A DNA stretch of 64,000 bases from Gemmatimonadota bacterium (GCA_034521595.1 JAXHMG010000003.1:1248001-1312000); one strand, 5' to 3'. Numbered from the stretch's first letter, positions 21,022 through 36,252 are shown. A program made the numbers and translations. Notes: generated by a model from the letters alone, not told the origin.

Positions 21022-22409
21022 AGCGCGCGAGCGCTCTCTTGGCCACGGCCGTCCTGACCGGATGTGCCGGAGGGGCCTCCGGGCCCGCCGGTCCCGTGGT
21101 GTCCCCCACGGGTATCGTCTACGAGCCCGGCACCCCTCCTTCCGAGACACAGTACTCACAGACCGCGGCGCTTTATCTCCGCTCCGACGAGCCGGAGCGC
21201 GCGCTACGCCGAGCCCTGGAGGGCGTCGAGGCCGATCCCGGGAACCCGATCCATCACTTTCTCGCGGGCGTGGCCCATGCACGTCTCGGTGCGTACGAGG
21301 CCGCCGACTCCCTGTGGAAGACGGCGCAACGCATCTACCCCGCGTACGAGCTCGACATCGAGCCCGAGCGCCTCGCCGCATGGGCGGACGCCTTCAACGA
21401 GGGGTCGGATGCGTACGCGGAAAGACGGGATTCCGCCGCGATCCGCGCGTGGCGCGACGCCACCCTGATGTACAACCTCCGCCCCGAAGCTCACCGTAAC
21501 CTGGGCATGCTCCTCACCCAACAAGGTCGTCTGAACGAGGCAGCGGAGGTCTATCGAGACCTCCTCGAGGGCCTGCAACGGGTGCCCGCGACGAGGCACC
21601 TGAGCGACGAAGCGAGATCGCGTCGTGCCGCCACCCGCATCGAAACGGAGGAGCGCCTCTCGGAAGCACTCCTACTGAGCGACCGATACGCCGAGGCCGA
21701 GCCGCTGCTACGGCAGAAGGTGGCCCGGAACCCCGAGGACCCCCGAGCTCGCCAGGCGCTCGCCGACGCTCTGGTGGGCCAGGAGCTGCGGGAGGAAGCC
21801 CGAGCCATTTACGACGAGCTCCTCGCCGACGACCGTCTGGACGGCACGGACCTCCACAATCTGGGGGTCACCCTCTTTCGAGCGGGCTTTCCGAAACGGG
21901 CGGCGGAGGCGTTCCGGCTCCTCACCGAAGCACGTCCGGACGCTCGCGACGCTTGGTTCAACTACGCGAACGCCCTCCTCGCCTCGGAGCGGTGGGAGAC
22001 GCTCGTTGCCGTGACCGACCAACTCGTTCAGCTCGACCCCCTCGGAGAAGGAGCCGGAATGATCGCGGCCCGCGCGCGCCTCGAATCCGGTGACGAACAG
22101 GGCGCCCTCCAGCGGCTCGAAGAGGTCGATACCGCCCCCGTTCACCTGGAGGGACTCGTCCTGCAACCGGCATCCTCGGCGACCCGGCTGGAAGGCCGGG
22201 TGGTCGGCAACGCCGGCGAGCCCGGAAGTGCCCTACGCCTCCGCTTCACCTTCTTCGGAGAAGGCTCCGGAGACGCAGGCCGGGCCTACGCCGAGACGTC
22301 GGTTCAGGTGCCGCCGGCCGACGAGAGTCACCCACTCGAGCTCACGGTCGGCATACGCGCGACGGGTTACCGGTACGAAGTCGTGGAGACGGCGGAGTCG
22401 GGCGGATAA
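21015..22409 (+). CDS. Tetratricopeptide-repeat lipoprotein
   Basis: Lipobox LTGC; TPR-like repeats (AHRNLGMLL..QGRLNEA, AWFNYANAL); overlaps the tonB stop. Confidence 0.82.
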   Translation: MVKRASALLATAVLTGCAGGASGPAGPVVSPTGIVYEPGTPPSETQYSQTAALYLRSDEPERALRRALEGVEADPGNPIHHFLAGVAHARLGAYEAADSLWKTAQRIYPAYELDIEPERLAAWADAFNEGSDAYAERRDSAAIRAWRDATLMYNLRPEAHRNLGMLLTQQGRLNEAAEVYRDLLEGLQRVPATRHLSDEARSRRAATRIETEERLSEALLLSDRYAEAEPLLRQKVARNPEDPRARQALADALVGQELREEARAIYDELLADDRLDGTDLHNLGVTLFRAGFPKRAAEAFRLLTEARPDARDAWFNYANALLASERWETLVAVTDQLVQLDPLGEGAGMIAARARLESGDEQGALQRLEEVDTAPVHLEGLVLQPASSATRLEGRVVGNAGEPGSALRLRFTFFGEGSGDAGRAYAETSVQVPPADESHPLELTVGIRATGYRYEVVETAESGG

Positions 22410-23758
22410 ACCCGCAGGAGGAGATCGTCTCCATCGCGCGGGACACCACGCCCGTCCGTGTTGCTCGTACCGAGCCAAAGGCCCCCGTCGGGGGCGACGC
22501 GAACCAAACGAAGCCGCCCGAAATCCTGCTCGAAGACGACCTCCTCGCACCCGACGCGCCATTGGCCTCTTCCGTCCCGCTCGAGGTCGAGCCGGCGCAA
22601 AGTCTCTCCGCGGAGCCCCGTCACCAAAGCGCTTCCACCCCACGATGAGCCGTCATCCGGGTAAAGGGCGAGGCCCGCGGGCGCGATCGCCGGCACCCAG
22701 GTCACCAGAGCCGACACGAAGGGCCCTCCTTCGGTGGTCCCGGTCGTGATCGGCCATCCCAGGTGGTCGCCCGCCTCGAGGGCGTTCAACTCGTCGCGAT
22801 TTCCGCGATAGCCCTCCTGCACCATCCCCGACGGTCCGTGATCAATGGCGAACATCTGCCCCGTCTCCGCTTCCCACGCCATCCCTTGGACGTGGCGGAT
22901 TCCCGAGGCGAAGACGGGGGACGAGCTCTGCCCGTCCACACCGTCCGGACGGCCGTCCGGACGGTAGCGGAGGATCTTTCCTCGAAGCGATTCCGGGGCA
23001 TGGGCCGTCCACGGCTCGGTGGCATCTCCGTTACTGACGTATAGCAATCCGTCGGGACCGAAGCGGAGGCTGCCACCGCCATGCAACATGAAAGCGGGCA
23101 ACCCATCGACGATCACCTCCGGATCTCCCGCTCGGCCATCAACTTCAGTCAGGCGAAGCACGCGCAGCGTGGTCGGGTGCCCACGTTCCGAATCGAACAT
23201 ACGTTGTAGCCGACGCCAGGCGCCAAGCAGCCCTCGAGACACGGCGTTCGACGGGATGCTCCTGTGCGTCGCCGCCACGTACACCTCCAACGCCCCCGCT
23301 TCGTTCGTTCTGGCGTCGATGCCCATGAGTCCGACCTCCTCCTGGGCGTAGACGTTCAGCTCGGCCCAGGGTTCCGAGTCGATCGTACCGTCGGCCCGGA
23401 CCATCCGAATGCGTCCGGGGCGCTCCGTGAACAAAGCACGTCCGTCCGGCAAAAACACGAGATCCCAAGGCACGGACAGCCCGGTCCCCAGGGTGTCCAC
23501 ACGCAGCGCTCCGGCCGAAGAGGGATCTTCGGCATCGAGTGTCTCACACACGGGCACCGAAGGTTCGGTCTCGCGCACCCCGAGCTCTTCGAGTGTCGGC
23601 AGGTCGCCCTCTTCCGGGCCGCACGCCCCGACGATCATGAGCAACACGCTCGAGACGAGCGCGTACTCGAGGCTCCCTCCGCGACGGGAGCGGAAGGGTG
23701 GACCGTCTCGGTGCCACTCGGAACGGAAGAACGAACCTACCAGAACAGGGCGGATCAC
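22367..23758 (-). CDS. PQQ-dependent sugar dehydrogenase (GSDH family) lipoprotein; start uncertain
   Basis: PWDLVFLPDG, TERPGRI, HGGGSLRFGPDG, GIRHVQG, DELN, GWP; lipobox VGAC. Confidence 0.85.
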   Translation of the reverse strand: MIRPVLVGSFFRSEWHRDGPPFRSRRGGSLEYALVSSVLLMIVGACGPEEGDLPTLEELGVRETEPSVPVCETLDAEDPSSAGALRVDTLGTGLSVPWDLVFLPDGRALFTERPGRIRMVRADGTIDSEPWAELNVYAQEEVGLMGIDARTNEAGALEVYVAATHRSIPSNAVSRGLLGAWRRLQRMFDSERGHPTTLRVLRLTEVDGRAGDPEVIVDGLPAFMLHGGGSLRFGPDGLLYVSNGDATEPWTAHAPESLRGKILRYRPDGRPDGVDGQSSSPVFASGIRHVQGMAWEAETGQMFAIDHGPSGMVQEGYRGNRDELNALEAGDHLGWPITTGTTEGGPFVSALVTWVPAIAPAGLALYPDDGSSWGGSALVTGLRGETLRRLDLERDGRGQWRVGCEEVVFEQDFGRLRLVRVAPDGGLWLGTSNTDGRGVPRDGDDLLLRVYPPDSAVSTTSYR

Positions 23759-23880
23759 TTGGACCTCGACTCCATGGTGTTGGTGTTGCAGTATGTGGGA
23801 GCCGGTTCACCGGATCTCCGGCTCGGGCGACCTTCCTACTCAGGACGTTCGTGTACGATCCCCGCAACAAGGAGGACCCC

Positions 23881-35439: not shown

Positions 35440-35772
35440 GGGGAGCCTCCGCGAAACGGTCCGTGTTGTACCGGCCGCGCCGATGAGCGGCCCTCGACCG
35501 GCTCGGCATCGGTAACACCCGAAGGTGCCCGCCGCAAGACTGCGCAAAACGAGGCTCAGCCTGCTGGCGGTCACGGGTGCTTCTCGACTCCGCCTGGATT
35601 GCGAGGGATAGCCGAACGTGCGTCCTCTCGGGTTACGAGGGGACATCCGCTGTCCCTCCTCCCTACCGGATCTCTCTTTCGCGCCCTAGAATGCCCGCCC
35701 GGCCGACGGACGAGCCAGCGCAGCCAACCGTCCCGCGCCCTCCATGACCCACCCAAACACACGAGCCCCGTC

Positions 35773-36252
35773 ATGACCCGACTTCTCCGCCCCACCGTTT
35801 TCGCCGCCGCGATGCTGTTACTGACCGCGCCAGGAGCTGACGGTCAGCTTCTCGACAAGCAGGTGGTGAGCCTCGACGCGGCCCGCACCATGATGGCCGC
35901 GGCGGAAGCGGAGGCGAACCGGAACGACTGGCCCGTGGCGATCGCCATCGTGGACGCGGCCGGCGAGTTGATCCTTTTTCAAAAGCTCGACGGCACCCAG
36001 GCGGCGAGCATCGACATCGCCATCGACAAGGCCCGGACCGCGGCCCGCCTGAAGCGGCCGACCAAGGCGCTCGAAGACGCGATCTCTTCCGGACGGACCG
36101 CGCTGGCGGCGGTCGACGGCATTCTTCCGCTCCAGGGCGGCGTGCCGATCACGGTCGGCGGCGAGGTGATCGGCGCGGTGGGCGTGAGCGGGGTCACGTC
36201 TCAGCAGGACGAGCAGGTCGCGGAAGCGGGCGTGGAGGCGCTGGGCGGGTAG
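35773..36252 (+). CDS. GlcG/HbpS-family heme-binding protein with a signal peptide
   Basis: AIVDAAG, IAIDKARTA, GGVPI...IGAVGVSG...DEQVA; C-terminal part of ORF 33955..36252. Confidence 0.9.
   Translation: MTRLLRPTVFAAAMLLLTAPGADGQLLDKQVVSLDAARTMMAAAEAEANRNDWPVAIAIVDAAGELILFQKLDGTQAASIDIAIDKARTAARLKRPTKALEDAISSGRTALAAVDGILPLQGGVPITVGGEVIGAVGVSGVTSQQDEQVAEAGVEALGG

Follow-up and report, generated by a model that had tools for sequence, protein, structure and literature searches.

Does an outer-membrane importer of the SusC/SusD type, encoded directly ahead of an amine dehydrogenase operon, feed that enzyme, or does it only lie beside it? The question is raised by a window of 64,000 nucleotides (the whole stretch of DNA that was analysed) from a Gemmatimonadota bacterium (GCA_034521595.1, JAXHMG010000003.1:1248001-1312000), in which susC and susD precede a gene of the glucose/sorbosone dehydrogenase family (GSDH1) and qhpADCB, the genes of the quinohemoprotein amine dehydrogenase (QHNDH). 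The source is a metagenome-assembled genome (MAG) of 3.49 Mb, which holds about nine SusD genes and one qhpA, and its nearest relatives are Gemmatimonadota, Longimicrobiales and Candidatus Palauibacter MAGs. We call the genome of the window G000; other G numbers denote genomes of relatives, and L numbers denote loci or contigs. The best explanation of the locus is that it serves periplasmic oxidation. From the sequence comparisons below, we give a probability of about 0.4 to the reading that SusCD is functionally coupled to periplasmic amine oxidation by QHNDH.

The genes in question form a single run on the minus strand, as the preliminary description of this DNA had stated, and coordinates, Pfam and NCBIfam agree on it. 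The run comprises susC (32458-35439, starting at MDARR; TIGR04056, 421.3 bits for a cutoff of 368.25), susD (31109-32443; PF07980, 55.6 bits for a cutoff of 23.1, with a LAGC lipobox), GSDH1 (29783-30940; PF07995, E 4.6e-133, 444 bits, with a lipoprotein signal), qhpA (27871-29589; TIGR03908, 459.8 bits for a cutoff of 274.35; PDB 1jmx_A, E 1.2e-70), qhpD (26447-27874; TIGR03906, 562.6 bits for a cutoff of 453), qhpC (26031-26435; NF037958, 119.7 bits for a cutoff of 50) and qhpB (24883-26034; TIGR03907, 57.5 bits, under the cutoff of 223.2). The gap between susC and susD measures 15 nt, that between susD and GSDH1 168 nt, and that between GSDH1 and qhpA 193 nt. The two longer gaps fold like shuffled sequence (z from -0.08 to -1.28) and no terminator-like site was detected in them; these results neither prove nor exclude read-through from susCD into qhp. 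A scan for sigma-70-like promoters, which is uninformative for this phylum, returned 0 sites in 22000-37000. With about nine SusD genes in 3.49 Mb and one qhpA, an adjacency of SusCD and qhp by chance is unlikely in such a genome, and not negligible.

QHNDH uses a built-in cofactor, cysteine tryptophylquinone (CTQ), and not pyrroloquinoline quinone (PQQ). The qhp system of G000 is in itself ordinary, and its qhpADCB is complete and predicted to encode such an enzyme. Indeed, QhpA, the dihaem alpha subunit, matches all four Pfam domains of the QHNDH alpha subunit (PF09098, PF14930, PF09099 and PF09100), and its CxxCH sites (C48/C51/H52 and C137/C140/H141) are invariant in nine aligned sequences (alignment A1). 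An AAGGAG ribosome-binding site stands ahead of qhpA, the stop of qhpA and the start of qhpD overlap as ATGA, qhpC starts 11 nt past the stop of qhpD, and the stop of qhpC and the start of qhpB overlap as GTGA; by these two overlaps, qhpADCB is a translationally coupled operon. QhpD, from its TIGR03906 match, is the radical S-adenosylmethionine/SPASM maturase responsible for the thioether cross-links in QhpC. The QhpC precursor consists of a leader of about 62 residues and a core of 72 residues. When it is aligned residue by residue with 1jmx_G and 1jju_C, under the presumed numbering of these positions, each of the four Cys is conserved, as are the Trp of CTQ and the three Asp or Glu residues that take part in the cross-links. 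QhpB taken alone has no PDB match; a profile of ten sequences (A3) aligns residues 11-321 of 1jju_B (E 2.9e-10), with an S-layer propeller scoring higher. Its position and its presence in all the qhp clusters compared support its identity as a divergent beta-propeller subunit. Three further genes serve maturation: qhpG encodes a flavin monooxygenase, qhpF an ABC exporter and qhpE a subtilase. They are intact in a cluster of their own at G000:C3:181916-185924, on the same contig and 1.09 Mb from qhpADCB. Each gave a single full-length tblastn match to proteins of the relatives' clusters, whose Pfam domains were checked, with identities of 60-78% for QhpF, 60-73% for QhpE and 37-46% for QhpG. 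In G005, qhpG, qhpF and qhpE lie inverted directly after qhpB.

Compared with the qhpADCBEFGR system of Paracoccus denitrificans and Pseudomonas putida (PDB 1JJU and 1JMX; PMC7876137), G000 has the same subunits, the same QhpD and the same order A-D-C-B, together with the cross-link residues of the gamma subunit, the QhpG flavoprotein, the QhpF exporter and the QhpE subtilase. It differs by the distant location of its qhpG-F-E, by the lack of an AraC-type qhpR at the locus, by a very divergent beta subunit and by its QhpC leader of about 62 residues, longer than the 28 residues given in PMC7876137. It also differs by what stands directly upstream, namely SusCD and a PQQ sugar dehydrogenase, whereas the account of operon content available from that paper names only qhpABCDEFGR.

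On the importer side, SusC bears a signal peptide, a CarboxypepD_reg domain, a plug and a barrel; Pfam finds neither an STN domain in this SusC nor an extracytoplasmic function (ECF) sigma factor or FecR gene at the G000 locus. The AlphaFold model of SusD (pLDDT 74) matches SusD/RagB structures with TM-scores of 0.5-0.6, and the SusD/RagB fold is confirmed at the level of this model. The structure search and the profile-to-PDB search gave the family and no clue to the ligand. RagB appears among the structural matches at ranks 8, 11 and 15, and RagAB of Porphyromonas gingivalis (bioRxiv 10.1101/755678; PDB 6SLN, 5CX8), an oligopeptide importer, is a precedent for a non-glycan, nitrogen-bearing SusCD cargo. 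This match is no closer than those to glycan-binding SusDs (13-14% identity within the same range of TM-scores) and thus carries no ligand information. With the Sus polysaccharide utilization locus (PUL) of Bacteroides thetaiotaomicron and the SusCD "pedal-bin" importers, as presented in the available part of PMC7782687, G000 shares adjacent susC and susD, a SusD lipoprotein lid and enzyme genes adjoining on the same strand. Unlike that PUL, its locus has no secreted carbohydrate-active enzyme, no hybrid two-component regulator and no sigma/anti-sigma pair, its enzymes are periplasmic quinoprotein dehydrogenases, and its phylum is Gemmatimonadota. Inside 22367-36252, no carbohydrate-active enzyme of the kind found in a canonical PUL is encoded, and Pfam bears out the earlier remark that this interval is free of glycoside hydrolases (GH); GH genes do occur at 36763-48956.

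If the importer and the enzyme work together, their genes may be expected to meet in other genomes, and the adjacency is indeed not unique to G000. SusCD adjoins qhp in at least eight genomes of six genera, G000 included, and on the metagenome contig L175; these counts of adjacency are lower bounds, taken from 150 of 331 SusD match rows. G000 and G001 share the order susC-susD-GSDH1-qhpADCB. In G005, a small lipoprotein gene separates susC-susD from qhpADCB, and G012 reads susC-susD-qhpG-qhpA. The order in G329 is qhpG-susC-susD, two small lipoprotein genes and qhpADCBFE, a layout repeated on L175. The G309 locus (L034 11075-17827) has, all on the same strand, qhpG, a SusC of 1132 aa, SusD, a 216-aa sigma factor of the ECF type, a 348-aa FecR anti-sigma protein and qhpADCBFE, and the sigma/FecR pair suggests that signalling across the envelope is linked to this qhp cluster. 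G216 carries, between qhpG and qhpADCBFE, a SusC that is 28% identical to that of G000, with its own SusD, while in G265 the SusCD genes are convergent and lie 2 kb past qhpE. In a scan of metagenomes, the SusD protein used singly found nothing; repeated with alignment A2, the scan gave 15 loci. Another metagenome contig, L173, shows SusD-GSDH1 and then ends. A tblastn search of QhpA against plasmids returned 27 records, all of them from Proteobacteria, and the best one, a Novosphingobium replicon with qhpADCB-F-E, has no SusC/PqqU-like match within 9 kb.

In seven genomes out of the eight, SusCD precedes qhpA on the same strand, and in three of them (G329, G309 and G216) it lies inside the otherwise invariant qhpG-qhpA junction. 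G005 has a qhp operon of the window's type (QhpD 81-84% identical) with SusCD of another subclade; G012 has SusCD of the window's type (66-68%) with qhp of the canonical type (QhpA 51-54%). To judge by these identities, either partner can be exchanged while the link between SusCD and qhp persists. In the SusD tree (23 rows), the window-type SusDs found next to qhp all fall in one clade of 12 rows (support 100/98), which also holds five members that are not adjacent to qhp; this share is not a frequency, since the non-adjacent SusDs are many and the tree includes a small selection of them. The SusD of G005 has as its sister a SusD of G004 that does not adjoin qhp, and those of G000 and G001 sit in another subclade, so that closely related qhp operons carry different upstream SusCD pairs. 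Altogether, two unrelated SusCD lineages, and two subclades, have been recruited next to qhp. We propose, tentatively, that SusCD would here be the first active import over the outer membrane dedicated to QHNDH, recruited repeatedly to the qhp clusters of Gemmatimonadota and, once, placed under ECF sigma/anti-sigma control.

A series of observations weighs against such a coupling. They bear, first, on its frequency. QhpA is found in 141 of 314 family genomes (E <= 1e-30), and the standard cluster of the family, qhpG-A-D-C-B-F-E, is almost always without SusCD. Three of the first 11 relatives' loci have SusCD beside qhp and eight do not; among loci that were not chosen for SusD, the adjacency was seen in none of 40 (L053-L092) and in none of 8 (L045-L052), and in three other families in none of 20 loci. 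When the 80 best of 341 QhpA relatives in the species collection, all of them Gemmatimonadota, were compared, four loci had it, each in a genome already counted. As a separate observation, some genomes carry more than one QhpA: G105 has two QhpA loci, and G127 has a second copy (L058, G127:C2:1029000-1048500) followed by a QhpB-like gene, with no match to QhpD, C, G, F or E nearby.

They bear, secondly, on its stability. The genome closest by QhpA, G004 (73%), has the order GlcG-GSDH1-qhpADCB, then the aldo-keto reductase and second dehydrogenase genes discussed below, with 245 bp at the position taken in G000 by the 4.9-kb susCD. G329 and G327 differ by a clean indel of 6.2 kb at the qhpG-qhpA junction. 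On a FastTree phylogeny of QhpD (81 of 85 loci; G012 was dropped, its QhpD being cut by the contig end), the eight adjacent rows among 81 need at least seven changes, a figure that leans upward, given that the G264 and G266 contigs stop 0.4-1.4 kb past qhpE. Taken together, the tree changes and the indel indicate that the SusCD-qhp state is short-lived, as expected of a mobile cassette. On L175, moreover, a gene of the opposite strand lies between susD and qhpA. The junction itself is open to other genes: among 15 loci in which the qhpG-qhpA gap exceeds 700 nt, three hold SusCD and the rest (L024, L045-L048, L074, L080-L083, L089 and L092) hold unrelated cargo, including AHSA1/SRPBCC-like proteins, an MT-A70 methyltransferase, a hybrid histidine kinase, a DUF4143 ATPase and a Mutator-family transposase.

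They bear, finally, on the partners themselves. The amines known to be oxidised by QHNDH are small, and porins should let them through. A SusD match (E <= 1e-45) is present in 140 of the 314 family genomes, 84 of which, by a hand count, also have QhpA and 56 of which do not, and the SusCD clade of the window is mostly located away from qhp. In the sequences compared, the SusCD clade thus does not depend on qhp, and most QHNDH clusters do without SusCD. Elsewhere, the companions of this clade are two small lipoprotein families (k2 and k3, about 150-200 aa, without a matching Pfam family) and a leucine-rich repeat (LRR) protein, seen in 10, 10 and 6 of 23 loci respectively (for example at L038 4622-5065, L044 3865-4317 and L175 11413-12377); none of these genes occurs in the window. 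Other neighbours are S9 peptidases and an esterase-like protein, at two loci each, and, at three loci, a PIG-L deacetylase together with an SSF symporter, a HIT protein and amidohydrolases. At L180 4081-6060 and L181 1-1873, a PQQ alcohol/glucose dehydrogenase with eight blades (PF01011, E 1e-171) is divergent from SusCD of the same clade, which thereby has a quinoprotein of a second kind as its neighbour.

The clean indels between close relatives, the state changes on the QhpD tree and the unrelated cargo at the same junction, transposase included, are what would be left by a mobile SusCD module that landed repeatedly at an insertion-prone site upstream of qhpA while serving the uptake of some other nutrient, for instance a peptide or a glycan. 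This mere juxtaposition, which we regard as possible and somewhat doubtful, also agrees with the mosaic neighbourhood of G000, where a block of GH genes is inserted by comparison with G001 and G004, and with the habit of the SusCD clade of travelling with k2, k3 and LRR genes and of settling beside peptidases, deacetylase/symporter genes, amidohydrolases and an esterase-like gene. By our own arithmetic, about ten SusD genes per 4-Mb genome in 141 genomes would yield 2-6 chance adjacencies within a few kb. However, such landings do not readily explain the constant strand and upstream position in all but one of the genomes, the three insertions inside the qhpG-qhpA junction, or the recruitment of unrelated lineages and different subclades, one of them with an ECF sigma/FecR pair. 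For the window's own SusD clade (1-5 copies per genome), we estimate a chance expectation well below 1, against seven genomes observed. Likewise, if SusCD pairs represent about 1% of genes, about 0.2 of them would be expected among some ten independent insertions at the junction, where three were observed; this is far above chance, on rough arithmetic that treats related genomes as if they were independent.

What, then, is the place of GSDH1 between the importer and the amine dehydrogenase? Its nearest solved structures are PDB 7cdy (E 3e-93) and E. coli YliI, 2g8s (E 4.6e-84), and by these matches it is a YliI/Asd-type soluble PQQ-dependent aldose (glucose/sorbosone) dehydrogenase. SusCD and GSDH1 could accordingly make up a sugar module, which would import an oligosaccharide and oxidise it at its reducing end, next to an independent amine operon qhpADCB. 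The close relation of this lipoprotein to solved aldose/glucose dehydrogenases would fit such a module, as would the return of the SusD-GSDH1 adjacency in G001 and on L173, the 193-nt gap before qhpA, which could hold a promoter, and the PF01011 dehydrogenases that adjoin SusCD on two other contigs of the same clade. Nevertheless, G004 has GSDH1 next to qhpADCB although it lacks SusCD at this locus, and SusCD stands beside qhp without any GSDH in G005, G012, G329, G309, G216 and L175. The common partner is therefore qhp and not GSDH1, which adjoins qhpA only within a single lineage of about genus rank (G000, G001 and G004), and we consider the sugar module unlikely.

GSDH1 needs PQQ, and its supply leads to a further explanation, in which SusCD would import a cofactor, for instance PQQ for GSDH1 and the second dehydrogenase of the locus, and not a substrate. 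No PqqC match was found in G000, a genome 93% complete, a weak negative since the control search for PqqC was blank in all 14 control genomes as well; for PqqE there is only a radical-SAM match below the cutoff. The E. coli PqqU protein has a full-length homologue in G000, encoded at C3:526343-528400 (E 3e-85, with 31% identity in 721 aligned columns). From the missing PqqC match and the presence of this homologue, PQQ is probably scavenged and imported, a habit described as common in Gemmatimonadetes in the available part of PMC12124388. The same source describes E. coli PqqU and YliI, a GSDH of the YliI type fed by imported PQQ, and G000 possesses both a counterpart of YliI (GSDH1) and one of PqqU. 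In contrast to the E. coli receptor, the transporter of the locus is a SusCD pair and not a plain 22-strand receptor, and the PqqU homologue lies away from it. While PQQ scavenging would make room for cofactor import, this homologue already offers a route for PQQ, and the enzyme that SusCD commonly accompanies, QHNDH, needs CTQ; we hold this explanation to be very improbable.

Under the reading that we prefer, the coupling of SusCD to QHNDH, the gene order and the recurrent synteny suggest the following course. SusC and SusD would actively import a scarce or bulky amine-bearing nutrient over the outer membrane; candidates are polyamines, sugars or oligosaccharides that bear an amine substituent, and amines released from imported conjugates once these are in the periplasm. 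QHNDH would then deaminate it, converting the primary amine to an aldehyde and ammonium and passing the electrons to c-type cytochromes, while the lipoprotein GSDH1 may oxidise an aldose moiety or a co-substrate with scavenged PQQ. The preliminary description had likewise proposed the import of a bulky amine followed by periplasmic deamination and carbonyl processing. The first two steps gain from the recurrence of SusCD beside qhp and lose from the fact that this is a minority and unstable state. The carbonyl processing is weak: the aldo-keto reductase is encoded on the opposite strand, has no evident signal peptide and, together with the second dehydrogenase, is arranged in this way only in G000 and G004.

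The same description had placed that aldo-keto reductase and a second PQQ-type dehydrogenase downstream of the operon. Both are present: the aldo-keto reductase gene at 23698-24840 on the plus strand (PF00248, E 3.1e-50; its start codon is uncertain) and GSDH2 at 22367-23758 on the minus strand (PF07995, E 1.2e-56; lipoprotein-type signal), a GSDH-family PQQ dehydrogenase more distant than GSDH1. Neither belongs to the qhp transcript. Indeed, the aldo-keto reductase gene is convergent with qhpB, which keeps it out of the same transcript, and GSDH2, behind it, forms a separate unit; both are neighbours of the operon and not members of it. Beside GSDH2, at 20050-22409 (+), lie genes for a protein with a TonB C-terminal domain and for a tetratricopeptide repeat protein, in the same order as in G004, where SusCD is absent. 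At the other end, the secreted HbpS/GlcG-like (DUF336) gene that had been noticed divergent upstream of susC is confirmed at 35773-36252 (+) by PF03928 (E 2.1e-39) and by its signal peptide; the copy of G004 adjoins GSDH1 and is 85% identical.

Farther upstream, 36763-48956 encodes a glucokinase, GH15, GH65, a trehalose phosphatase, a GH13-like protein of 932 aa and a GH57 protein with DUF3536. No signal peptides were found in these GH genes, and the block is a 12.8-kb insertion relative to G001 and G004, in which the region of the IF3 gene follows nearly at once. It is, for these two reasons, a cytoplasmic trehalose/alpha-glucan block inserted nearby and not a partner of SusCD, and an alpha-glucan or trehalose PUL built on these genes is ruled out on the same grounds. 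Elsewhere in the window, a complete rRNA operon at 10270-15320 (-) (16S 13758-15320, 23S 10518-13488, 5S 10270-10386) accounts for the low-GC stretch at 10-16 kb, and three tRNA genes (His, Arg and Pro) lie at 15745-15819, 18822-18895 and 62102-62176. The interval 27500-36500 was recovered nearly whole (0.95 of the sampled words) in a salt pan metagenome run, which may be the source of the assembly itself.

A literature search for a link of QHNDH with SusD or with TonB-dependent transport, supplementary gene-neighbourhood tables being outside its scope, found none. In what is available of PMC12124388, QHNDH appears only in the reference list, and in the available part of bioRxiv 10.1101/445817 only as a marker gene in a figure legend. 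As far as this search shows, the link between SusCD and qhp is unpublished; it is a plausible variant, to which the comparison of gene neighbourhoods lends moderate support. SusCD pairs are the main uptake route for large nutrients in Bacteroidota and their relatives. To our knowledge, their cargo consists of glycans, with peptides, vitamins and a small number of other compounds as exceptions, and QHNDH has been studied only in Proteobacteria and with small amines, in work that considers no uptake step at the outer membrane.

If a cassette has only landed in a permissive site, the locus would be a qhp operon like any other, set in mosaic surroundings. If, on the other hand, SusCD does feed QHNDH, amines would join the list of SusCD cargo, and G000 would provide a concrete SusD protein for ligand screening. 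The amines on which QHNDH acts in these bacteria would then be scarce or bulky ones, for instance polyamines, glycans with amino substituents or conjugates, and not small ones that diffuse freely. Such a coupling would suggest a high-affinity scavenging of nitrogen or energy in marine and saline Gemmatimonadota, a phylum in which few functions have been studied.

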